The translations under genes and the position numbers were made by a program. This document shows positions 1-63,757 of a stretch of 64,000 nt of DNA, in pieces (within the stretch, counting starts at the first letter, position 1; every line of letters starts with the position of its first letter). Location: the NCBI GenBank assembly GCA_964016885.1, contig CAXHJY010000419.1, positions 2,046-66,045 of the forward strand. Reading direction: 5' to 3'. Source of the DNA: Eledone cirrhosa. Lineage: Eukaryota. The notes beneath the pieces are model-generated. The model did not search any database, was not told the origin of the DNA, and worked only from the letters and a program-made list of their open reading frames with translations.

Positions 1-3000
1 TAGAATAGGTATATTGTATATCTGGTTTAGAATAGGTATACTGTATATCTGGTTTAGAATAGGTATACTGTATATCTGGTTTAGAATAGGTATACTGTAT
101 ATCTGGTTTAGAATAGGTATATTGTATATCTGGTTTAGAATAGGTATATTGTATATCTGGTTTAGAATAGGTATATTGTATATCTGGTTTAGAATAGGTA
201 TACTGTATATCTGGTTTAGAATAGGTATACTGTATATCTGGTTTAGAATAGGTATATTGTATATCTGGTTTAGAATAGGTATACTGTATATCTGGTTTAG
301 AATAGGTATACTGTATATCTGGTTTAGAATATGTATATTGTATATCTGGTTTAGAATAGGTATATTGTATATCTGGTTTAGAATAGGTATATTGTATATC
401 TGGTTTAGAATAGGTATACTGTATATCTGGTTTAGAATAGGTATATTGTATATCTGGTTTAGAATAGGTATATTGTATATCTGGTTTAGAATAGGTATAC
501 TGTATATCTGGTTTAGAATAGGTATACTGTATATCTGGTTTAGAATAGGTATATTGTATATCTGGTTTAGAATAGGTATACTGTATATCTCGTTTAGAAT
601 AGGTATATTGTATATCTGGTTTAGAATAGGTATACTGTATATCTGGTTTAGAATAGGTATATTGTATATCTGGTTTAGAATAGGTATATTGTATATCTGG
701 TTTAGAATAGGTATACTGTATATCTGGTTTAGAATAGGTATACTGTATATCTGGTTTAGAATAGGTATACTGTATATCTGGTTTAGAATAGGTATACTGT
801 ATATCTGGTTTAGAATAGGTATATTGTATATCTGGTTTAGAATAGGTATACTGTATATCTGGTTTAGAATAGGTATACTGTATATCTGGTTTAGAATAGG
901 TATACTGTATATCTGGTTTAGAATAGGTATAATGTATATCTGGTTTAGAATAGGTATATTGTATATCTGGTTTAGAATAGGTATATTGTATATCTGGTTT
1001 AGAATAGGTATACTGTATATCTGGTTTAGAATAGGTATACTGTATATCTGGTTTAGAATAGGTATATTGTATATCTGGTTTAGAATAGGTATACTGTATA
1101 TCTGGTTTAGAATAGGTATATTGTATATCTGGTTTAGAATAGGTATACTGTATATCTGGTTTAGAATAGGTATACTGTATATCTGGTTTAGAATAGGTAT
1201 ACTGTATATCTGGTTTAGAATAGGTATACTGTATATCTGGTTTAGAATGGGTATACTGTATATCTGGTTTAGAATAGGTATACTGTATATCTTGTTTAGA
1301 ATAGGTATATTGTATATCTGGTTTAGAATAGGTATATTGTATATCTGGTTTAGAATAGGTATACTGTATATCTGGTTTAGAATAGGTATACTGTATATCT
1401 GGTTTAGAATAGGTATGCTGTATATCTGGTTTAGAATAGGTATATTGTATATCTGGTTTAGAATAGGTATATTGTATATCTGGTTTAGAATAGGTATATT
1501 GTATATCTGGTTTAGAATAGGTATACTGTATATCTGGTTTAGAATAGGTATACTGTATATCTGGTTTAGAATAGGTATATTGTATATCTGGTTTAGAATA
1601 GGTATACTGTATATCTGGTTTAGAAGAGGTATATTGTATATCTGGTTTAGAATAGGTATATTGTATATCTGGTTTAGAATAGGTATACTGTATATCTGGT
1701 TTAGAATAGGTATATTGTATATCTGGTTTAGAATAGGTATATTGTATATCTGGTTTAGAATAGGTATACTGTATATCTGGTTTAGAATAGGTATACTGTA
1801 TATCTGGTTTAGAATAGGTATATTGTATATCTGGTTTAGAATAGGTATAGTGTATATCTGGTTTAGAAGAGGTATATTGTATATCTGGTTTAGAATAGGT
1901 ATATTGTATATCTGGTTTAGAATAGGTATACTGTATATCGGGTTTAGAATAGGTATATTGTATATCTGGTTTAGAATAGGTATACTGTATATCTGGTTTA
2001 GAATAGGTATACTGTATATCTGGTTTAGAATAGGTATACTGTATATCTGGTTTAGAATAGGTATACTGTATATCGGGTTTAGAATAGGTATATTGTATAT
2101 CTGGTTTAGAATAGGTATACTGTATATCTGGTTTAGAATAGGTATATTGTATATCTGGTTTAGAATAGGTATACTGTATATCTGGTTTAGAATAGGTATA
2201 CTGTATATCTGGTTTAGAATAGGTATATTGTATATCTGGTTTAGAATAGGTATACTGTATATCGGGTTTAGAATAGGTATACTGTATATCTGGTTTAGAA
2301 TAGGTATATTGTATATCTGGTTTAGAATAGGTATATTGTATATCTGGTTTAGAATAGGTATATTGTATATCTGGTTTAGAATAGGTATACTGTATATCTG
2401 GTTTAGAATAGGTATACTGTATATCTGGTTTAGAATAGGTATATTGTATATCTGGTTTAGAATAGGTATACTGTATATCTGGTTTAGAAGAGGTATATTG
2501 TATATCTGGTTTAGAATAGGTATATTGTATATCTGGTTTAGAATAGGTATACTGTATATCGGGTTTAGAATAGGTATATTGTATATCTGGTTTAGAATAG
2601 GTATACTGTATATCTGGTTTAGAATAGGTATACTGTATATCTGGTTTAGAATAGGTATACTGTATATCTGGTTTAGAATAGGTATACTGTATATCGGGTT
2701 TAGAATAGGTATATTGTATATCTGGTTTAGAATAGGTATACTGTATATCTGGTTTAGAATAGGTATATTGTATATCTGGTTTAGAATAGGTATACTGTAT
2801 ATCTGGTTTAGAATAGGTATACTGTATATCTGGTTTAGAATAGGTATATTGTATATCTGGTTTAGAATAGGTATACTGTATATCGGGTTTAGAATAGGTA
2901 TACTGTATATCTGGTTTAGAATAGGTATATTGTATATCTGGTTTAGAATAGGTATATTGTATATCTGGTTAAGAATAGGTATATTGTATATCTGGTTTAG

Positions 3001-6000
3001 AATAGGTATATTGTATATCTGGTTTAGAATAGGTATACTGTATATCTGGTTTAGAATAGGTATATTGTATATCTGGTTTAGAATAGGTATACTGTATATC
3101 TGGTTTAGAATAGGTATACTGTATATCTGGTTTAGAATAGGTATACTGTATATCTGGTTTAGAATAGGTACATTGTATATCTGGTTTAGAATAGGTATAT
3201 TGTATATCTGGTTTAGAAGAGGTATACTGTATATCTGGTTTAGAATAGGTATACTGTATATCTGGTTTAGAACAGGTATATTGTATATCTGGTTTAGAAT
3301 AGGTATATTGTATATCTGGTTTAGAATAGGTATATTGTATATCTGGTTTAGAATAGGTATATTGTATATCTGGTTTAGAACAGGTATATTGTATATCTGG
3401 TTTAGAATAGGTATACTGTATATCTGGTTTAGAATAGGTATATTGTATATCTGGTTTAGAATAGGTATACTGTATATCTGGTTTAGAATAGGTATATTGT
3501 ATATCTGGTTTAGAATAGGTATATTGTATATCTGGTTTAGAATAGGTATACTGTATATCGGGTTTAGAATAGGTATATTGTATATCTGGTTTAGAATAGG
3601 TATACTGTATATCTGGTTTAGAATAGGTATACTGTATATCTGGTTTAGAATAGGTATACTGTATATCTGGTTTAGAATAGGTATACTGTATATCGGGTTT
3701 AGAATAGGTATACTGTATATCTGGTTTAGAATAGGTATACTGTATATCTGGTTTAGAATAGGTATATTGTATATCTGGTTTAGAATAGGTATACTGTATA
3801 TCTGGTTTAGAATATGTATACTGTATATCTGGTTTAGAATAGGTATACTGTATATCTGGTTTAGAATAGGTATACTGTATATCTGGTTTAGAATAGGTAT
3901 ACTGTGTATCTGGTTTAGAATAGGTATATTGTATATCTGGTTTAGAATAGGTATATTGTATATCTGGTTAAGAATAGGTATATTGTATATCTGGTTTAGA
4001 ATAGGTATATTGTATATCTGGTTTAGAATAGGTATACTGTATATCTGGTTTAGAATAGGTATATTGTATATCTGGTTTAGAATAGGTATACTGTATATCT
4101 GGTTTAGAATAGGTACATCGTATATCTGGTTTAGAATAGGTATATTGTATATCTGGTTTAGAAGAGGTATACTGTATATCTGGTTTAGAATAGGTATACT
4201 GTATATCTGGTTTAGAATAGGTATATTGTATATCTGGTTTAGAATAGGTATATTGTATATCTGGTTTAGAATAGGTATATTGTATATCTGGTTTAGAATA
4301 GGTATATTGTATATCTGGTTTAGAATAGGTATATTGTATATCTGGTTTAGAATAGGTATATTGTATATCTGGTTTAGAATAGGTATACTGTATATCTGGT
4401 TTAGAATATGTATATTGTATATCTGGTTTAGAATAGGTATATTGTATATCTGGTTTAGAATAGGTATACTGTATATCTGGTTTAGAATAGGTATACTGTA
4501 TATCTGGTTTAGAATAGGTATACTGTATATCTGGTTTAGAATAGGTATATTGTATATCTGGTTTAGAATAGGTATACTGTATATCTGGTTTAGAATAGGT
4601 ATACTGTATATCTGGTTTAGAATAGGTATACTGTATATCTGGTTTAGAATAGGTATATTGTATATCTGGTTTAGAATAGGTATATTGTATATCTGGTTTA
4701 GAATAGGTATATTGTATATCTGGTTTCGAATAGGTATACTGTATATCTGGTTTAGAATAGGTATATTGTATATCTGGTTTAGAATAGGTATACTGTATAT
4801 CTGGTTTAGAATAGGTATACTGTATATCTGGTTTAGAATAGGTATATTGTATATCTGGTTTAGAATAGGTATATTGTATATCTGGTTTAGAATAGGTATA
4901 TTGTATATCTGGTTTAGAATAGGTATACTGTATATCTGGTTTAGAATAGGTATATTGTATATCTGGTTTAGAATAGGTATATTGTATATCTGGTTTAGAA
5001 TAGGTATACTGTATATCTGGTTTAGAATAGGTATACTGTATATCTGGTTTAGAATAGGTATATTGTATATCTGGTTTAGAATAGGTGTACTGTATATCTC
5101 GTTTAGAATAGGTATACTGTATATCTGGTTTAGAATAGGTATATTGTATATCTGGTTTAGAATAGGTATATTGTATATCTGGTTTAGAATAGGTATATTG
5201 TATATCTGGTTTAGAATAGGTATACTGTATATCTGGTTTAGAATAGGTATATTGTATATCTGGTTTAGAATAGGTATATTGTATATCTGGTTTAGAATAG
5301 GTATACTGTATATCTGGTTTAGAATAGGTATACTGTATATCTGGTTTAGAATAGGTATATTGTATATCTGGTTTAGAATAGGTGTACTGTATATCTCGTT
5401 TAGAATAGGTATACTGTATATCTGGTTTAGAATAGGTATATTGTATATCTGGTTTAGAATAGGTATATTGTATATCTGGTTTAGAATAGGTATACTGTAT
5501 ATCTGGTTTAGAATAGGTATACTGTATATCTGGTTTAGAATAGGTATACTGTATATCTGGTTTAGAATAGGTATACTGTATATCTGGTTTAGAATAGGTA
5601 TATTGTATATCTGGTTTAGAATAGGTATATTGTATATCTGGTTTAGAATAGGTATATTGTATATCTGGTTTAGAATAGGTATACTGTATATCTGGTTTAG
5701 AATAGGTATACTGTATATCTGGTTTAGAATAGGTATATTGTATATCTGGTTTAGAATAGGTATACTGTATATCTGGTTTAGAATAGGTATATTGTATATC
5801 TGGTTTAGAATAGGTATATTGTATATCTGGTTTAGAATAGGTATACTGTATATCTGGTTTAGAATAGGTATACTGTATATCTGGTTTAGAATAGGTATAC
5901 TGTATATCTGGTTTAGAATAGGTATACTGTATATCTGGTTTAGAATAGGTATACTGTATATCTGGTTTAGAATAGGTATACTGTATATCTGGTTTAGAAT

Positions 6001-8550
6001 AGGTATATTGTATATCTGGTTTAGAATAGGTATATTGTATATCTGGTTTAGAATAGGTATACTGTATATCTGGTTTAGAATAGGTATACTGTATATCTGG
6101 TTTAGAATAGGTATGCTGTATATCTGGTTTAGAATAGGTATATTGTATATCTGGTTTAGAATAGGTATATTGTATATCTGGTTTAGAATAGGTATATTGT
6201 ATATCTGGTTTAGAATAGGTATACTGTATATCTGGTTTAGAATAGGTAAACTGTATATCTGGTTTAGAATAGGTACATTGTATATCTGGTTTAGAATAGG
6301 TATACTGTATATCTGGTTTAGAAGAGGTATATTGTATATCTGGTTTAGAATAGGTATATTGTATATCTGGTTTAGAATAGGTATATTGTATATCTGGTTT
6401 AGAATAGGTATACTGTATATCTGGTTTAGAATAGGTATATTGTATATCTGGTTTAGAAGAGGTATACTGTATATCGGGTTTAGAATAGGTATACTGTATA
6501 TCTGGTTTAGAATAGGTATACTGTATATCTGGTTTAGAATAGGTATACTGTATATCTGGTTTAGAATAGGTATATTGTATATCTGGTTTAGAATAGGTAT
6601 ATTGTATATCTGGTTTAGAATAGGTATATTGTATATCTGGTTTAGAATAGGTATACTGTATATCTGGTTTAGAATAGGTATATTGTATATCTGGTTTAGA
6701 ATAGGTATATTGTATATCTGGTTTAGAATAGGTATACTGTATATCTGGTTTAGAATAGGTATACTGTATATCTGGTTTAGAATAGGTATATTGTATATCT
6801 GGTTTAGAATAGGTATACTGTATATCTGGTTTAGAATAGGTATACTGTATATCTGGTTTAGAATAGGTATACTGTATATCTGGTTTAGAATAGGTATATT
6901 GTATATCTGGTTTAGAATAGGTATATTGTATATCTGGTTTAGAATAGGTATACTGTATATCTGGTTTAGAATAGGTATACTGTATATCTGGTTTAGAATA
7001 GGTACATCGTATATCTGGTTTAGAATAGGTATATTGTATATCTGGTTTAGAAGAGGTATACTGTATATCTGGTTTAGAATAGGTATACTGTATATCTGGT
7101 TTAGAATAGGTATATTGTATATCTGGTTTAGAATAGGTATATTGTATATCTGGTTTAGAATAGGTATATTGTATATCTGGTTTAGAATAGGTATACTGTA
7201 TATCTGGTTTAGAATAGGTATATTGTATATCTGGTTTAGAATAGGTATATTGTATATCTGGTTTAGAAGAGGTATATTGTATATCTGGTTTAGAATAGGT
7301 ATATTGTATATCTGGTTTAGAATAGGTATACTGTATATCTGGTTTAGAATAGGTATACTGTATATCTGGTTTAGAATAGGTATACTATATATCTGGTTTA
7401 GAATAGGTATATTGTATATCTGGTTTAGAATAGGTATACTGTATATCGGGTTTAGAATAGGTATACTGTATATCTGGTTTAGAATAGGTATATTGTATAT
7501 CTGGTTTAGAATAGGTATATTGTATATCTGGTTTAGAATAGGTATACTGTATATCTGGTTTAGAATAGGTATACTGTATATCTGGTTTAGAATAGGTATA
7601 CTGTATATCTGGTTTAGAATAGGTATATTGTATATCTGGTTTAGAATAGGTATACTGTATATCTGGTTTAGAAGAGGTATACTGTATATCTGGTTTAGAA
7701 TAGGTATACTGTATATCTGGTTTAGAATAGGTATACTGTATATCGGGTTTAGAATAGGTATACTGTATATCGGGTTTAGAATAGGTATATTGTATATCTG
7801 GTTTAGAATAGGTATACTGTATATCTGGTTTAGAATAGGTATACTGTATATCTGGTTTAGAATAGGTATACTGTATATCTGGTTTAGAATAGGTATACTG
7901 TATATCGGGTTTAGAATAGGTATACTGTATATCGGGTTTAGAATAGGTATACTGTATATCGGGTTTAGAATAGGTATATTGTATATCTGGTTTAGAATAG
8001 GTATACTGTATATCTGGTTTAGAATAGGTATACTGTATATCTGGTTTAGAATAGGTATACTGTATATCTGGTTTAGAATAGGTATACTGTATATCGGGTT
8101 TAGAATAGGTATATTGTATATCTGGTTTAGAATAGGTATACTGTATATCTGGTTTAGAATAGGTATATTGTATATCTGGTTTAGAATAGGTATACTGTAT
8201 ATCTGGTTTAGAATAGGTATATTGTATATCTGGTTTAGAATAGGTATACTGTATATCTGGTTTAGAATAGGTACACTGTATATCTGGTTTAGAATAGGTA
8301 TATTGTATATCTGGTTTAGAATAGGTATACTGTATATCTGGTTTAGAATAGGTATATTGTATATCTGGTTTAAAATAGGTATACTGTATATCTGGTTTAG
8401 AATAGGTATACTGTATATCTGGTTTAGAATAGGTATATTGTATATCTGGTTTAAAATAGGTATACTGTATATCTGGTTTAGAATAGGTATATTGTATATC
8501 TGGTTTAGAATAGGTATACTGTTTATATGAAGTAGAATAAGTATACTGTA
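1..8550. repeat. 27-bp tandem satellite (GGTTTAGAATAGGTATA[C/T]TGTATATCT), about 315 copies in window, inside a CYFIP intron
   Basis: Directly visible periodicity, substitutions only, decays at about 8520-8550. Confidence 0.99.
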
Positions 8551-8564
8551 TAAGGATTAACTCA

Positions 8565-28249
<19,685 letters not shown>

Positions 28250-36586: not shown

Positions 36587-39500
36587 GCAGTCATGGCTGT
36601 GTGGTTAAGAGATTTGCTTAGCAACCATGTGGTCTTCAGTTCTATCCCACTGCATGACACCTTGGGAAAGTGTCTATCACCACAGCCTCAGACAGACCAA
36701 ACCATGTGGTCTTCAGTTCAATCCCACTGCATGGCACCTTGGGAAAGTGTATCACCACAGCCTCAGACAGACCAAACCATGTGGTCTTCAGTTCTATCTC
36801 ACTGCATGGCACCTTGGGAAAGTGTCTACCACTACAGCCTTAGACTGACCAAACCATGTGGTCTTCAGTTCTATCTCACTGCATGGCACCTTGGGAAAGT
36901 GTCTATCACTACAGCCTTAGACTGACCAAACCATGTGGTCTTCAGTTCTATCTCACTGCATGGCACCTTGGGAAAGTGTCTACCACTACAGCCTCAGACT
37001 GACCAAACCATGTGGTCTTCAGTTCTATCTCACTGCATGGCACCTTGGGAAAGTGTCTATCACTACAGCCTTAGACTGACCAAACCATGTGGTCTTCAGT
37101 TCTATCTCGCTGCATGGCACCTTGGGAAAGTGTCTACCACTACAGCCTCAGACTGACCAAACCATGTGGTCTTCAGTTCAATCTCACTGCATGGCCCCTT
37201 GGGAAAGTGTCTACCACTACAGCCTCAGACTGACCAAACCATGTGGTCTTCAGTTCAATCTCACTGCATGGCACCTTGGGAAAGTGTCTACCACTACAGC
37301 CTTAGACTGACCAAACCATGTGGTCTTCAGTTCTATCTCACTGCATGGCACCTTGGGAAAGTGTCTACCACTACAGCCTTAGACTGACCAAACCATGTGG
37401 TCTTCAGTTCTATCTCACTGCATGGCACCTTGGGAAAGTGTCTACCACTACAGCCTCAGACTGACCAAACCATGTGGTCTTCAGTTCTATCTCACTGCAT
37501 GGCACCTTGGGAAAGTGTCTACCACTACAGCCTCAGACTGACCAAACCATGTGGTCTTCAGTTCTATCTCACTGCATGGCACCTTGGGAAAGTGTCTACC
37601 ACTACAGCCTCAGACTGACCAAACCATGTGGTCTTCAGTTCTATCTCACTGCATGGCACCTTGGGAAAGTGTCTACCACTACAGCCTCAGACTGACCAAA
37701 CCATGTGGTCTTCAGTTCTATCTCACTGCATGGCACCTTGGGAAAGTGTCTATTACCACAGCCTCAGACTGACCAAACCATGTGGTCTTCAGTTCAATCT
37801 CACTGCATGGCACCTTGGGAAAGTGTCTATCACCACAGCCTCAGACTGACCAAACCATGTGGTCTTCAATTCTATCTCACTGCATGGCACCTTGGGAAAG
37901 TGTCTATCACCACAGCCTCAGACTGACCAAACCATGTGGTCTTCAGTTCTATCTCACTGCATGGCACCTTGGGAAAGTGTCTATCACCACAGCCTCAGAC
38001 TGACCAAACCATGTGGTCTTCAGTTCTATCTCACTGCATGGCACCTTGGGAAAGTGTCTATCACCACAGCCTCAGACTGACCAAACCATGTGGTCTTCAG
38101 TTCTATCCCACTGCATGACCCCTTGGGAAAGTGTCTATCACTACAGCCTTAGACTGACCAAACCATGTGGTCTTCAGTTCTATCTCACTGCATGGCACCT
38201 TGGGAAAGTGTCTACCACTACAGCCTTAGACTGACCAAACCATGTGGTCTTCCGTTCTATCTCACTGCATTGCCCCTTGGGAAAGTGTCTACCACTACAG
38301 CCTTAGACTGACCAAACCATGTGGTCTTCAGTTCTATCTCACTGCATGGCACCTTGGGAAAGTGTCTACCAATACAGCCTTAGACTGACCAAACCATGTG
38401 GTCTTCAGTTCTATCCCACTGCATGGCACCTTGGGAAAGTGTCTACCACTACAGCCTTAGACTGACCAAACCATGTGGTCTTCAGTTCAATCCCACTGCA
38501 TGGCACCTTGGGAAAGTGTCTACCACTACAGCCTTAGACTGACCAAACCATGTGGTCTTCAGTTCAATCCCACTGCATGGCACCTTGGGAAAGTGTCTAT
38601 CACTACAGCCTTAGACTGACCAAACCATGTGGTCTTCAGTTCTATCCCACTGCATGGCACCTTGGGAAAGTGTCTACCACTACAGCCTTAGACTGACCAA
38701 ACCATGTGGTCTTCAGTTCAATCCCACTGCATGGCACCTTGGGAAAGTGTCTATCACTACAGCCTTAGACTGACCAAACCATGTGGTCTTCAGTTCAATC
38801 CCACTGCATGGCACCTTGGGAAAGTGTCTATCACTACAGCCTTAGACTGACCAAACCATGTGGTCTTCAGTTCTATCCCACTGCATGGCACCTTGGGAAA
38901 GTGTCTATCACCACAGCCTTAGACTGACCAAACCATGTGGTCTTCAGTTCTATCCCACTGCATGGCACCTTGGGAAAGTGTCTATCACTACAGCCTTAGA
39001 CTGACCAAACCATGTGGTCTTCAGTTCTATCTCACTGCATGGCACCTTGGGAAAGTGTCTACCACTACAGCCTTAGACTGACCAAACCATGTGGTCTTCA
39101 GTTCTATCCCACTGCATGGCACCTTGGGAAAGTGTCTATCACCACAGCCTTAGACTGACCAAACCATGTGGTCTTCAGTTCTATCCCACTGCATGGCACC
39201 TTGGGAAAGTGTCTACCACTACAGCCTTAGACTGACCAAACCATGTGGTCTTCAGTTCTATCTCACTGCATGGCACCTTGGGAAAGTGTCTATCACTACA
39301 GCCTTAGACTGACCAAACCATGTGGTCTTCAGTTCTATCCCACTGCATGGCACCTTGGGAAAGTGTCTACCACTACAGCCTTAGACTGACCAAACCATGT
39401 GGTCTTCAGTTCTATCCCACTGCATGGCACCTTGGGAAAGTGTCTATCACCACAGCCTTAGACTGACCAAACCATGTGGTCTTCAGTTCTATCCCACTGC

Positions 39501-39830
39501 ATGGCACCTTGGGAAAGTGTCTACCACTACAGCCTTAGACTGACCAAACCATGTGGTCTTCAGTTCTATCTCACTGCATGGCACCTTGGGAAAGTGTCTA
39601 TCACTACAGCCTTAGACTGACCAAACCATGTGGTCTTCAGTTCTATCCCACTGCATGGCACCTTGGGAAAGTGTCTATCACCACAGCCTTAGACTGACCA
39701 AACCATGTGGTCTTCAGTTCTATCCCACTGCATGGCACCTTGGGAAAGTGTCTATCACCACAGCCTTAGACTGACCAATGTCTCGTGAGTGAAACTGACA
39801 GACGGAAACTGTATGAAGCTTGTATGTGTA
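36587..39830 (+). repeat. 77-bp tandem satellite (about 41 copies, 36622-39777) amplified from inside a tRNA-derived SINE
   Basis: SINE head TGGCTGTGTGGTTAAG precedes the array, each unit has a B-box-like GTTC(A/T)ATC(C/T)C, and SINE-like 3' sequence follows the last unit. Confidence 0.92.
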
Positions 39831-44442: not shown

Positions 44443-45594
44443 GCTGTCAGTAAAGTGAGAATAGGAATGTAGTTTAGTGAGGAATTCCAGATACAAGTAG
44501 GTGTACATCAGGGTTCGGTCCTCAGCCCACTCTTGTTCATTATAGTCCTCCAAGTCATAACAGATGAGTTTAAGATTGGCTGCCCATGGGAAGTTCTCTA
44601 TGCTGATGATCTGGTTCTTATAGCAGAATCAGTAGAGGAGCTAGAGAATAAATTCTGGCTATGGAAACAGCAGTTGGAATCAAGAGGCCTGAGAGTGAAC
44701 AGAGCTAGAACAAAAGTGTTGATAAGTAGAAGAGAGGACAATACTCTAATTCCATCGGGGAAATGGCCATGTTCGATATGTAGGAAAGGAGCTGGCATAA
44801 ATTCCATAAAATGTACACAATGCAGATCTTGGGTACACAAGAGATGTAGTGGGATAGCAGGCAAACTAACAGGTAGGGAAAACTACGTATGCAGTAGATG
44901 TACAGGGAAAATTGGCAGTAGTAATTGCAGTGATAGACACATTTTTCCATTGCGGGTGGGTTCTATAGAAGTGGTTGATAGCTTCCAGTTCCTAGGTGAT
45001 CAGATTAGCATGGGAGGGGGCGGGGTGTGTTCCAAGGCCATAGTATCTAGAATAAGGACGGGTTGGAAGAAGTTTAGGGAGCTGCTTCCTCTGTTGACAA
45101 AGAAAGGTTTCTTCCTGCATACGAAAGAACGGTTATATGATGCCTGTGTGAGATGTGCGATGCTGCATGGTAATGAGACATGGGCAGCAACTGCAGAAGA
45201 TATGCGACGGCAGGGAGAAATGAAGCCAGTATGCTCCGTTGGATGTGCTATGTCAATGTGCATGAACGACCAAGCATAGATGAGTTGAGAAAGAAACTGG
45301 GTATAAGAGGGATAAGTTGTGGTGTGCAGGAGAGAAGGCTGAGATGGTATGGACATGTGATGCGCATGGAGGATTACCGCTGAGTAAAGAAGTGCCAAGA
45401 AATCTCAGTAGAAGGAAGACGCAGTAGAGGTAGACCACGAAAAACATGGGCGGTGGTGGTGAGAGCAGACATCAGATCGCTGAATCTCACCGAGGAGATG
45501 ACAAAGGACCGTGATAAGTGGAGAGATGCTGTGCTGAATAGGACCCGTCCAACCCTTACAAGCAGGGAAAAGCAGGCGTAAAATGATGATGATA
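44443..45594 (+). mobile_element. RTE-clade LINE, 5'-truncated, frameshifted, different subfamily from 20591
   Basis: GVHQGSVLSP, VLYADD, PHD-like WPCSIC...WVHKRC...CSRC, RLRWYGHVMR, (GAT)n tail. Confidence 0.9.
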
Positions 45595-51958: not shown

Positions 51959-52831
51959 TTCACACAGAGAAATACATATATTCATATTAGTAGAACGGTC
52001 TTTTCCCTTTGATGCTGCTTAATATTTCCACTAGTGGTAGTAGTAGTAGTGGTTGAAATAGTACGGTGACGAAAGCAGTGGTAACAACAATTGTCTTAAA
52101 ACTTGAAGTCTAATATTTTAAGGAAGAGTGAGGACGAACGGATGTGGTAGCATTTATGCCTCTCCCAAAATTATTTAGCAACGTAAACGAATAAACGAAG
52201 GAGGTTATTTAAATTTATTTAAGATAATGAATATCGAAGCAAGAATATTCATAATCTCGGCTCGCCAGGGAATTTACCATGGAAAGGAAAATACGAACCA
52301 ATAATAATTACAACATCGATAATAATAATAATTTGGTTTTAATGAAATTTGGATGAGAAAGCGTCAAAAGCAATCGCGGTATTAACAACTATAACTTACA
52401 GATCTATCAAAAGAGGAAATTCTTTAAATTTGAACGACAAAAAAAAATTCTTGTAGAGGAGTAGATATTTATTTGATGAAATGTTTCAAAAATGGGCCTT
52501 AAATAACATACACACCCTCGTTTAAATATGTGTGTGTGCGCACATAGATGTGTGCATGTGCGCGCAGACGTGTGTGTGTGTGCATGTGAAAGTGCGTACA
52601 TATATAAATGTGTGTGTGTGTAGACACAGACAAAGATTTCTAGATAGAGACAAACAGACAGACACACAAATAGACAGTAAGAGAGACATATAGAGAGATG
52701 GGGGGGGGGGAGATGAGAAGCGTGTAGTAGTATTTATAGTTCGTCAAAATATCTTTTCCATAAAATACAAGATATTTTTCGGAGATAAGAGAACATATAT
52801 ATAGAGAGAGAGATAGAGGGGGAGGGGGAAT

Positions 52832-52883
52832 GGCTTCTACAGGACTAGAACTGTTTCATTCGAAGGAAATCATCAGGAAAGCC
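52832..52883 (-). ncRNA. Solitary type I hammerhead ribozyme motif
   Basis: Minus strand ggctttc CTGATGA tttc-cttc-gaat GAA ACAG-ttctagtc-CTGT A gaagcc; complete core, all three helices can form. Confidence 0.75.
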
Positions 52884-54222
52884 TGCTATGTATTGAGTAC
52901 CTTACTTACTGTGGTTACCCCCATTGAACCCAGGATACACACACACATATATATATATATAGTCTATCGATTCTTGATGATCGATCAAAGCTAGATTTTG
53001 AACCCACAACGATAAGGTGCAGCAAATGAAAATAAGTCTGACATACCGGGCTTCTAAGAGCCTTTATTATACGGTATTTAAGATAGTCATAATATATATC
53101 ATAACAATAGCTTCATTTTAACAGCCACATAGCATCGTTTTCCTATAGGGGGTGGGGGTAGGATCAGATATGATGTTCAGGATTTTAAAAAAATATTTTA
53201 TTTCAGAGGAAAGAAAGCTTAAATAGGTGCCGTAAGTGAAAACGGCATTTGAATTTTGACTTAAGAATCGAATGAAGTGATAATAAACTGAAACGTTCAT
53301 GGCTTTCCCCCATCACTAGTAGTGGCTAGGAATCGAAACCGCCTCACTAATCAGAGAGGGGGGGGGGGGCATAAAAAGCGAAGGATTGTGTTGTAGCATT
53401 CATGCATTTCCTACGTCTATTAATGATGCGGAGGCGACGAAAAAACTAGGTGAGCTCACAGAATCTGAAAAGTTAATTCATACAACACCATATACAGTCA
53501 GACAAATAGATATATATACAGAGAGAGAGAAAGTTAGTTAGATAGATATATAGATAGATACATAAATATTGAGGGGGATGAGACAAACACTATATAGATA
53601 GATGGAGACGATAGAAGAGGGAAAGAGAGGGAGTCTCTATTGCATTTAGACAAGTTAACCCACTTTTGGAATCAAAATAAATCAGCAGTGGAAAGGAGGT
53701 GAGAAGTGGAGATGAACGAAATATTTTTACGACAGTCCTAATCAAAGACCAACATTTTAACAATTTGGTAGAATATAGTGTATGTATATATGTGCCTATG
53801 TATGTATGGGCATATATATATATGTGTCTGTGTATGTATGTAATACTATAATGGACTATTCTATATATAGAATGGTTTAATACATACATCTATGTGAATG
53901 TGTGTATGACAAGAGAAAGCGACATAGAAAGATATATAGCTGTATATGAGAGATGAGCAGACATATAGATTGACAATACTTATCAAAACAATACCAATCA
54001 GCTGTACACACACTCATTACAATCAACTATATATATATATATACACACACATAGTGTCTACAATCGTCTATATATATTCACTATTTATAATCGATTATGT
54101 ATGCGTGTATATATATACACGCATATACATATAGATAAATATGATAGCGCAAGGAAAAGGGACGCTAACTGGTGATATATATATATATAGTGTATGTGTA
54201 TATATATATATATATATATACA

Positions 54223-54301
54223 CAGGGTGTCCCAAAAATGAATACACACTTTGATTAGAATGCTGTTGAAATGTGTATACATATTTTGGGGAGACACCCT
54301 G
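54223..54301. mobile_element. Tc1/mariner-type MITE of about 80 bp
   Basis: TIRs CAGGGTGTCCCAAAA ... TTTTGGGGAGACACCCTG followed by TA. Confidence 0.8.
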
Positions 54302-54616
54302 TATATGTAATGTATGTGTGTATATATATATTTATATATATATATATACATAGCATCTATGTATGTACATACATACATAGCATCTATGTATATATATGGA
54401 ATGTACCACACCTTCAACAATAGCAGAGACAGATCAGATCACACTGAACATAAACAGCTGAAGAGAAATTCTCTCTCAATCTGTCACTAGTCAGTTAAAG
54501 CTTGGTAATAATTGTGACACATTCAGATTATATATATAAAATAATAATAATAAAGGGTTTTTTTCTAAGTATAGAGTACTAAGGTCTTACTGGTCATAAG
54601 CTATAACATTCACATA

Positions 54617-56220
<1,604 letters not shown>

Positions 56221-56224
<4 letters not shown>

Positions 56225-58092
56225 TCGCTATTTCAGAGCATTTATTCCAATTTCTAATTTCTGCCGGACCGGCAACCGCTCTTTCAAACCAGTTCCTGTA
56301 CACAGCTAAGTATTCTATAAGTCTCTAGCTGTGTCATTCTCGATAAAAGCACTGGATATGTAGTCCTGATGAATTCTAACAAGAATGAAACGCGTAGACT
56401 TACTTCCCTTGCTTTTATCGAGAATCTAATTGTAATACGTGACGTATTCTATTCTATAGCGATTAGGTCTTCAAAATGTTTATTGTAAACATACAGAATA
56501 TTTTCGAATATTCTATGTCTATATTCACATATATATCGCTATTTCAGAGCATTTATTCCAATTTCTAATTTCTGCCGGACCGGCAACCGCTCTTTCAAAC
56601 CAGTTCCTGTACACAGCTAAGTATTCTATAAGTCTCTAGCTGTGTCATTCTCGATAAAAGCACTGGATATGTAGTCCTGATGAATTCTAACAAGAATGAA
56701 ACGCGTAGACTTACTTCCCTTGCTTTTATCGAGAATCTAATTGTAATACGTGACGTATTCTATTCTATAGCGATTAGGTCTTCAAAATGTTTATTGTAAA
56801 CATACAGAATATTTTCGAATATTCTATGTCTATATTCACATATATATCGCTATTTCAGAGCATTTATTCCAATTTCTAATTTCTGCCGGACCGGCAACCG
56901 CTCTTTCAAACCAGTTCCTGTACACAGCTAAGTATTCTATAAGTCTCTAGCTGTGTCATTCTCGATAAAAGCACTGGATATGTAGTCCTGATGAATTCTA
57001 ACAAGAATGAAACGCGTAGACTTACTTCCCTTGCTTTTATCGAGAATCTAATTGTAATACGTGACGTATTCTATTCTATAGCGATTAGGTCTTCAAAATG
57101 TTTATTGTAAACATACAGAATATTTTCGAATATTCTATGTCTATATTCACATATATATCGCTATTTCAGAGCATTTATTCCAATTTCTAATTTCTGCCGG
57201 ACCGGCAACCGCTCTTTCAAACCAGTTCCTGTACACAGCTAAGTATTCTATAAGTCTCTAGCTGTGTCATTCTCGATAAAAGCACTGGATATGTAGTCCT
57301 GATGAATTCTAACAAGAATGAAACGCGTAGACTTACTTCCCTTGCTTTTATCGAGAATCTAATTGTAATACGTGACGTATTCTATTCTATAGCGATTAGG
57401 TCTTCAAAATGTTTATTGTAAACATACAGAATATTTTCGAATATTCTATGTCTATATTCACATATATATCGCTATTTCAGAGCATTTATTCCAATTTCTA
57501 ATTTCTGCCGGACCGGCAACCGCTCTTTCAAACCAGTTCCTGTACACAGCTAAGTATTCTATAAGTCTCTAGCTGTGTCATTCTCGATAAAAGCACTGGA
57601 TATGTAGTCCTGATGAATTCTAACAAGAATGAAACGCGTAGACTTACTTACTTACTTCCCTTGCTTTTATCGAGAATCTAATTGTAATACGTGACGTATT
57701 CTATTCTATAGCGATTAGGTCTTCAAAATGTTTATTGTAAACATACAGAATATTTTCGAATATTCTATGTCTATATTCACATATATATCGCTATTTCAGA
57801 GCATTTATTCCAATTTCTAATTCTGCCGGACCGGCAACCGCTCTTTCAAACCAGTCCTGTACACAGCTAAGTATTCTATAAGTCTCTAGCTGTGTCATTC
57901 TCGATAAAAGCACTGGATATGTAGTCCTGATGAATTCTAACAAGAATGAAACGCGTAGACTTACTTCCTTGCTTTTATCGAGAATCTAATTGTAATACGT
58001 GACGTATTCTATTCTATAGCGATTAGGTCTTCAAAATGTTTATTGTAAACATACAGAATATTTTCGAATATTCTATGTCTATATTCACATAT
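56221..58092 (+). repeat. Tandem array A: 6 x 311 bp units, each with a type I hammerhead ribozyme (retrozyme-like)
   Basis: tcgctatttc recurs at 56225, 56536, 56847, 57158, 57469 and 57788. Confidence 0.95.
56336..56425 (+). ncRNA. Type I hammerhead ribozyme, array A copy 1 (predicted cleavage after GUA at 56396)
   Basis: agtc CTGATGA attct-aaca-agaat GAA ACGCGT A gact, closed by the 16-bp inverted repeat attctcgataaaagca/tgcttttatcgagaat. Confidence 0.9.

Positions 58093-63757
<5,665 letters not shown>

Follow-up and report, generated by a model that had tools for sequence, protein, structure and literature searches.

Non-LTR retrozymes have been described as non-coding tandem repeats with units of 170–400 nt, each carrying a type I hammerhead ribozyme (PMC7229834; bioRxiv 10.64898/2026.07.22.740005), and the accessible parts of these reports further describe a GC content below 50%, a self-paired monomer, and coexisting Penelope elements. 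The 2020 retrozyme paper named Penelope elements as strong candidates for their mobilization, hypothesized that circles are copied, and assigned the ligation of monomers into circles to an RtcB-type ligase (PMC7229834). The 2026 preprint reported co-occurrence and terminal-repeat similarity, with the mechanism still to be elucidated, and one of nine Xenopus retrozyme dimers was cleaved in vitro (bioRxiv 10.64898/2026.07.22.740005). Endonuclease-positive Penelope elements are recognized by inverted 5′-truncated arms and by a tail of 30–40 bp on one side, and they insert into (TA)n (PMC8557442, PMC3846280); the origin of this inverted, tailed form is described as still unresolved (PMC8557442). 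The purified anole Penelope protein cuts and extends both strands, prefers AT-rich DNA, and begins at two adjacent internal sites, the interval between which is the tail; in vitro, uncleaved RNA was its main substrate and no reads started at the ribozyme cut (PMC11167929).

We analyzed a stretch of 64,000 nucleotides from Eledone cirrhosa (contig CAXHJY010000419.1 of assembly GCA_964016885.1, positions 2,046 to 66,045), hereafter the window. An earlier note on its letters alone had described a six-unit 311-bp tandem array, and TRF indeed delimited such an array at 56218–58096 (period 311 bp, 6.0 copies, 98%), sitting between two (TA)n/(CA)(TA)n tracts. Units 1–4 are identical to each other, an 8-nt duplication lies directly 3′ of the fifth predicted cut site, and three 1-nt deletions set the last unit apart. 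The unit is free of protein-coding frames, as had been claimed, the longest stop-free frame being just 64 codons; an ORF for reverse transcriptase (RT) and GIY-YIG endonuclease was not found within the 311-bp element, which is thus not an autonomous Penelope-like element. The tandem units fall within the range of about 150–450 bp expected of retrozymes, where at least two units should carry a complete type I hammerhead and all six do so here, with no ORF and with a GC content (about 0.33 across 56001–58000) below 50%. Plant LTR retrozymes carry type III hammerheads in two LTRs, whereas the topology here is type I and the units are in tandem. The features of the array and its surroundings are as follows.

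54614–56225, no strand: left (TA)n/(CA)(TA)n microsatellite target
56218–58096, plus strand: one-armed insertion of six 311-bp retrozyme units (TRF, end mapping)
56336–56425, plus strand: 16-bp perfect inverted repeat around the ribozyme, with arms at 56336–56351 and 56410–56425
56360–56403, plus strand: minimal type I hammerhead of unit 1 (descriptor, folding, sub-threshold Rfam match)
56360–56365 and 56397–56403, plus strand: the two strands of helix I of this hammerhead
56366–56372 and 56373–56386, plus strand: its core and its helix II, respectively
56390–56395, plus strand: its palindrome, with the predicted cut after 56396
56397–56707, plus strand: predicted cut-to-cut monomer of 311 nt, a putative circle
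56456–56541, plus strand: hairpin module upstream of and including site A, kept in two sister families
56524–56536, plus strand: site A (monomer 128–140), where one arm of each genomic insertion ends
56560–56569, plus strand: site B (monomer 164–173), a largely unpaired stretch where the other arm ends
58089–58697, no strand: right (TA)n/(CA)(TA)n microsatellite target, shared with the 466-bp array
58695–60402, minus strand: second retrozyme array with a 466-bp unit and 3.7 copies (TRF, own minimal type I hammerhead)

The CUGAUGA cores begin at 56366, 56677, 56988, 57299, 57610, and 57927, and the predicted cuts after GUA lie at 56396, 56707, 57018, 57329, 57640, and 57957, a spacing of 311 nt that rises to 317 nt for the last. 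The complete type I hammerhead with a GUA triplet that the earlier note had read was present in all six units, with core, helices I and II, NUH triplet, and palindromic helix III, the latter limited, as stated there, to the palindrome ACGCGU. A type I hammerhead descriptor matched the unit itself, and among 20,000 dinucleotide shuffles it matched 2. Helix II is 5 bp long in the window haplotype, and the majority haplotype of the family has a U-U mismatch at its base; axolotl retrozyme families, as far as described, likewise combine U-U at this position with a weak helix III rescued by dimers. The expected Rfam model Hammerhead_1 was not listed for any core. Instead, all six cores matched Hammerhead_HH9 alone (17.8–19.7 bits, E 0.11–0.43) against a gathering score of 52, so that by this threshold they fall outside the Rfam hammerhead clan CL00010, mostly because helix III is missing. 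AT-repeat microRNA models dominated the matches in the Rfam scan of 54000–60000. The proposed extension of helix I by a 16-bp perfect inverted repeat stood as far as the repeat is concerned, but internal loops part it from the short helix I; the other self-complementary hairpins were also present in the minimum free energy (MFE) structure, except that the GC hairpin has a loop of 3 nt rather than the 1 nt claimed. The circular monomer folded at −67.2 kcal/mol (z −3.5; of 200 shuffles, 1 was equally stable) and was 59% paired, as in the highly self-paired monomers of retrozymes. When a two-core stretch was folded unconstrained, a double hammerhead with both palindromes paired was the free MFE structure (−110.5 kcal/mol versus −93.3 for two single ribozymes), so the computation favors the dimer-type ribozyme suggested earlier. 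Self-cleavage into 310–311-nt monomers and circles is predicted from this folding and from conservation. For published retrozymes circles have been shown; those of the 311-bp family are putative.

Genome-wide, exact core matches numbered 16,176 in the 3.0-Gb genome, against none for the control. The B end adjoined a TA run 760 times on the forward strand, against 3 for the control (counts on the reverse strand were inflated by overlaps); 39 of 40 sampled B-end sites belonged to the 311-bp family, and by our estimate the (TA)n microsatellites of this genome carry some 1,500 insertions or more. Units 100% identical to those of the window were found on at least five other large contigs, suggesting that the family is very young. 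The dispersed arrays anticipated by the earlier note were thus recovered as identical units on other contigs, together with Penelope-type junctions, and its retrozyme assignment with mobilization in trans gained computational support from the same copies. These copies coexist with autonomous Penelope elements, as in non-LTR retrozymes. Judged by its sequence, the 311-bp family is a non-LTR retrozyme, a known kind of element; the class, the Penelope link, and the rolling-circle idea are already published, and the family itself is apparently a new member. Cephalopods do not appear in the available text of the two retrozyme reports (Cervera and de la Pena 2020; Li et al. 2026), and our literature search found neither cephalopod retrozymes, nor the 311-bp family, nor retrozyme insertion junctions; Repbase and supplements may hold some.

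The family was also met in public sequencing runs. No RNA run was among those listed as containing it, which has no bearing on expression. Run X1 contained a large heterogeneous family, runs X4 and X5 each yielded one 340-nt contig wrapping round the unit, and run X6 yielded one 340-nt contig spanning the stretch in question (depth 18–34 over X4–X6), all three with identical listed differences from the window unit. These contigs fit a circle and a tandem array equally. X4, X5, and X6 are labelled as three organisms other than that of the best-matching run and come from three studies; their contigs may reflect RNA, trace DNA, close relatives, or transfer.

To describe the architecture, we examined 70 insertions, 20 found by similarity, the first 40 B-end sites on C1, and 10 of 20 planned replication sites; 50 of the 70 had therefore been chosen for TA adjacency at the B end. 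Two arms were present in 63 insertions and one arm in 4 (the window, L039, L080, and the higher-order L046/L047, counted here as one insertion), leaving 3 unassigned. L088 was left out of the counts as a sister family whose match to the B pattern is unrelated. The two arms are inverted and meet head to head, and their RNA 3′ ends point outward into (TA)n. Numbered from the cut, the outer ends fall at two sites only, A (128–140) and B (164–173), and never at the ribozyme cut. All 56 loci with both ends resolved showed one A and one B end: 14 of 14 among those not selected by an end, and 34 of 34 and 8 of 8 among those selected by the B end, where B+B but not A+A could have been revealed. Under independent, equal-odds choice of ends, the probability of 14 of 14 is about 6e-5. 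The A–B interval of about 35 nt is a Penelope-like tail, and the resolved outer ends adjoin TA runs, as expected of AT-rich or (TA)n targeting; inside such tracts a target-site duplication is unreadable. Arms had medians of 3.4 units (A) and 4.4 units (B), the longest reaching 16, and contained 620 intact cut sites. The 128 arm 5′ ends were spread round the unit; none lay at positions 1–3, and no more than 5 nt from the cut there were 2 where 4.1 were expected.

The family therefore has the inverted arms and tail of Penelope insertions, a form that the one-armed window copy lacks. The latter is an atypical insertion that begins at monomer position 133 and ends at 140, both ends lying inside an 8-nt AT microhomology with the flanking microsatellite. 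Several other junctions were unusual. At L068 (854–1125), a 272-nt foreign piece lies between the arms and matches a repeat clustered on C25:19–24 Mb, which looks like a capture via template switching at the junction. L051 (2603–2780) has an extra short inversion between the arms, with the same join repeated twice. L046–L047 (G000:C14:25.205–25.225 Mb) form a higher-order satellite with a period of about 4.6 kb, in which retrozyme blocks and microsatellite flanks were co-amplified, demonstrating that DNA-level expansion also happens; this place (C14:25.21 Mb) had been considered as an autonomous partner and was rejected, being a higher-order array without a real ORF.

The window holds a second array on its minus strand (58695–60402), whose hammerhead has the palindrome ACUAGU, a GUA triplet, and predicted cuts at 59937, 59469, and 59003; by sequence this is a second retrozyme family, unrelated to the 311-bp one. 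It is dispersed at 100% identity, and four of six fetched loci were two-armed, with ends at 245–251 and 300–310 and a tail of about 60 nt, the other two being one-armed like the window's; the copy in the window has its 5′ end at position 2 after the cut. Older sister families of the 311-bp element (L088:3413–3975; L091–L102; L104:2432–2868) share the hairpin and A/B module at 77–80% identity, carry different hammerheads, and both show the inverted form; one has a long palindromic helix III, a U3-A8 core, and a unit of about 321 bp, with 2,978 candidates. This distribution suggests module swapping between the ribozyme and priming parts. A degenerate hammerhead-like motif at 52830–52885 on the minus strand, with similar motifs in L095 and L142, probably represents another, older family. 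The window further contains satellites of 27 bp (317 copies, 1–8552) and 77 bp (41 copies, 36623–39778), other repeats that we take to resemble octopod SINEs, two frames that presumably belong to a LINE reverse transcriptase (20591–22387 and 44473–45276), and a minus-strand piece presumably related to a CYFIP exon (27566–28249).

We then compared substitution haplotypes, skipping the indel-ambiguous monomer positions 2–4, trimming 20 nt (5′) and 16 nt (3′) from each arm, and excluding L046/L047. In 69 loci, 28 haplotypes were distinguished, of which 20 were seen once and the commonest was shared by 15 loci. Where both arms cover all 31 polymorphic sites, the two agreed in 43 of 45 loci, whereas agreement between arms of different loci was 10.8%; without the loci picked by similarity, the figures were 32 of 34 and 17%. 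Minority variants were rare (73 singletons in 191,736 nt) and had a mirror counterpart in the other arm in 2 of 39 checks, which came from a single locus. From the concordance and the rarity of mirroring we conclude that a single homogeneous template gave rise to both arms, neither being a copy of the other. For a new variant to be fixed in every unit of both arms a monomer bottleneck is needed, which a circle would provide. One mirrored variant in both arms of L181 and the mosaic L079 indicate that some templates held unlike units.

The variants that spread differ from singletons in their relation to the fold. Locus-fixed variants broke predicted pairs in 8 of 33 cases versus 37 of 73 for singletons (p=0.012). 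Within the 31-nt core, fixed variants occurred only at N7, helix II, and loop II, and the 6 varying positions miss all 16 constrained ones (p=0.007), which 3 singletons hit. These patterns suggest that core and fold are under selection among spreading variants. The site-A hairpins are kept in the sister families, where 2 of 14 predicted pairs changed on both sides, a weak indication from a five-row alignment of related rows. On the RNA strand, fixed variants comprised 9 A>G and 2 T>C changes versus 6 and 11 among singletons (Fisher p=0.024), and a predicted pair survives as G-U in 7 of the 9 A>G changes that are fixed. As the test was post hoc and most changes keep pairing, we did not accept A-to-I editing as shown; editing and selection for G-U-tolerant pairing could account for the skew about equally well. 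Another observation concerns monomer position 89 (56485), where the window has G and run X1 has A in about 99.99% of its depth. None of the 49 loci picked without regard to similarity has this G fixed. It is fixed, on several backgrounds, in 14 loci and occurs sporadically in another 4, and is thus a recurrent change that may be private to the sequenced individual.

A partner enzyme was sought among 10,597 GIY-YIG candidates in the genome, of which 47 loci were inspected. Among them were five Penelope families, in four of which the descriptor matched a hammerhead close to the ends. In the L135 family, an RT and GIY-YIG frame of 1,024 aa is open (L135:2991–6062, on G000:C1), copies are 96–100% alike, and the family's own A and B ends lie 37–38 nt apart in (TA)n. 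In the 45 nt before B, it aligned with the retrozyme at a score of 21–25, reached by none of 2,000 shuffles in an anchored test that was post hoc, and six other ends showed no match to the retrozyme tail in the same B-anchored test. The match is limited to this 45-nt tail when B-anchored: free local alignment of the retrozyme A/B region with a clean L135 copy was not significant (26 of 300 shuffles), and blastn gave no match to a pLTR among the matches listed for the 47 loci. Apparent A/B-region matches to five Penelope families in free alignment were discarded as TA-run artefacts. We therefore regard the L135 family as a candidate partner enzyme of the 311-bp retrozyme. The closest named relatives of the host Penelope protein are mostly from bivalve molluscs. 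Separately, L133 (G000:C1:145869500–145879400) has a 938-aa stop-free RT and GIY-YIG frame, flanked by two repeats that carry hammerheads and lie 4,979 nt from each other; it is apparently a complete Penelope-like element and possibly another active family.

The family thus combines traits of several systems. With endonuclease-positive Penelope elements it shares the inverted 5′-truncated arm, the one-end tail of 30–40 nt, the (TA)n or AT-rich target, a minimal hammerhead upstream of two start sites, and little need for priming homology (PMC8557442, PMC3846280, PMC11167929, as far as described there). Unlike those elements the 311-bp retrozyme lacks an ORF, and each of its arms consists of up to 16 or more identical short units, whereas theirs are partial tandems of an element of several kb. 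The available descriptions of retrozymes mention neither inverted insertions with two arms, nor a pair of fixed 3′ ends, nor (TA)n targeting (PMC7229834; bioRxiv 10.64898/2026.07.22.740005). Chlamys elements such as MRC1 are alike in being non-autonomous Penelope derivatives with multicopy head-to-tail insertions, but canonical hammerheads are reported to be missing from their clade, which depends on a clade with an N-terminal endonuclease (PMC8557442, in the part available).

In LINE-1 twin priming, both ends of the target start synthesis on a single RNA, which produces an inversion, the first primer using the poly(A) end and the second priming anywhere; the retrozyme, in contrast, has two fixed internal start sites, and both of its arms are multimeric.

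That the 311-bp family is a Penelope-mobilized retrozyme appears highly probable to us, and the whole chain, a young non-autonomous Penelope-dependent retroelement with a circular RNA template, is on balance the likelier course of events. Arrays would be transcribed on the hammerhead strand, and neighboring units would pair their ACGCGU palindromes into the double hammerhead seen in silico, releasing 310–311-nt monomers; with a helix III of 1 bp at most in a lone monomer, the ligated circle would be nearly inert. An endonuclease-bearing Penelope-like protein would then cut both strands of a (TA)n tract, and the two DNA 3′ ends would prime on the same RNA at A and B, about 35 nt apart and with 0–8 nt of microhomology, as the observed junctions suggest. 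Both reverse transcriptions would continue past the ribozyme site through as many as 16 units or more, the simplest way being to roll round a circle, and joining of the two cDNAs at arbitrary positions would yield the observed order of (TA)n, inverted arm, arm, and (TA)n. Occasional annealing of one cDNA back to (TA)n may produce one-armed copies like the window's.

Against this chain speak the U-U mismatch in helix II of the majority haplotype and the templates with unlike units (L181, L079). Moreover, long homogeneous arrays are already present, as the 15 loci with the commonest haplotype show, and their uncut transcripts might serve as linear templates that leave an identical footprint. The same two-site Penelope priming might thus act on an uncut multimeric transcript, with a slow or dispensable ribozyme and arrays homogenized and lengthened at the DNA level. 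The dominance of uncleaved RNA as the substrate of anole Penelope (PMC11167929), the eight of nine Xenopus dimers left uncleaved (bioRxiv 10.64898/2026.07.22.740005, as far as available), the lack of a 5′ pile-up at the cut, and the mirrored variant of L181 all speak for it. Linear templates, however, predict variants fixed in one arm or mosaics at founder loci, and only 2 of 45 full-length pairs were discordant despite 20 of 28 haplotypes being seen once; the apparent selection on core and fold also argues against them, and linear copying alone could presumably only shorten arrays. We consider this account rather unlikely. A single priming event followed by fold-back and self-priming of the cDNA, with the endonuclease resolving the second end at the other site, as proposed in PMC3846280, would explain the identical haplotypes in both arms, the head-to-head inversions, and a few near-palindromic junctions such as L037, where both 5′ ends lie at 193. 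Variants were mirrored about the arm junction in just 2 of 47 checks, from one locus, however, most loci have arm 5′ ends that lie far from each other, the longer arm may be either of the two, and both strands were extended in vitro (PMC11167929), which together make self-priming improbable.

Local mechanisms fared worse still. Unequal crossing-over expanding the leftover terminal repeat of a Penelope element into a satellite, a scenario discussed in bioRxiv 10.64898/2026.07.22.740005, would suit the L046/L047 array amplified with its microsatellite and the one-armed window copy with its matching ends. As a general mechanism it is already contradicted by 100% identical units on at least five other large contigs, by fresh A/B ends at each locus, and by inverted arms that are both multimeric with one haplotype, and we judge it very improbable. 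Expansion of a single copy by misassembly is hardly credible: although the window is on a minor satellite-rich contig and units 1–4 are identical, units 5–6 differ, multimeric arrays with locus-specific haplotypes occur on chromosome-scale contigs, and contigs from the public runs join unit end to unit start. Returning to Penelope-driven copying of a circle, we suggest only tentatively, and with some doubt, that the loci may record a Penelope enzyme copying an RNA circle from both ends of a break at once, with changes in a single RNA, possibly by A-to-I editing, written into every unit of both arms. A circle travelling between hosts is a weaker possibility, raised by a 310-nt sequence that is the same in three runs labelled as other organisms and closes on itself there as one clean contig.

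How animal retrozymes move is an open question, and the 311-bp family bears on it directly, as it offers a very large number of young insertions, an A+B pattern to which our sample has no exception, and a template of 311 nt, together with an open frame for a candidate enzyme. Its value would lie in this two-site, one-template footprint together with the candidate enzyme, which may make an open mechanism testable, retrozyme mobility and Penelope insertion both coming within reach of a single in vitro reaction. Should the template be circular, nature would offer a compact model of RNA-to-genome writing, in which a small ribozyme-made circle directs the integration of multimers into (TA)n.
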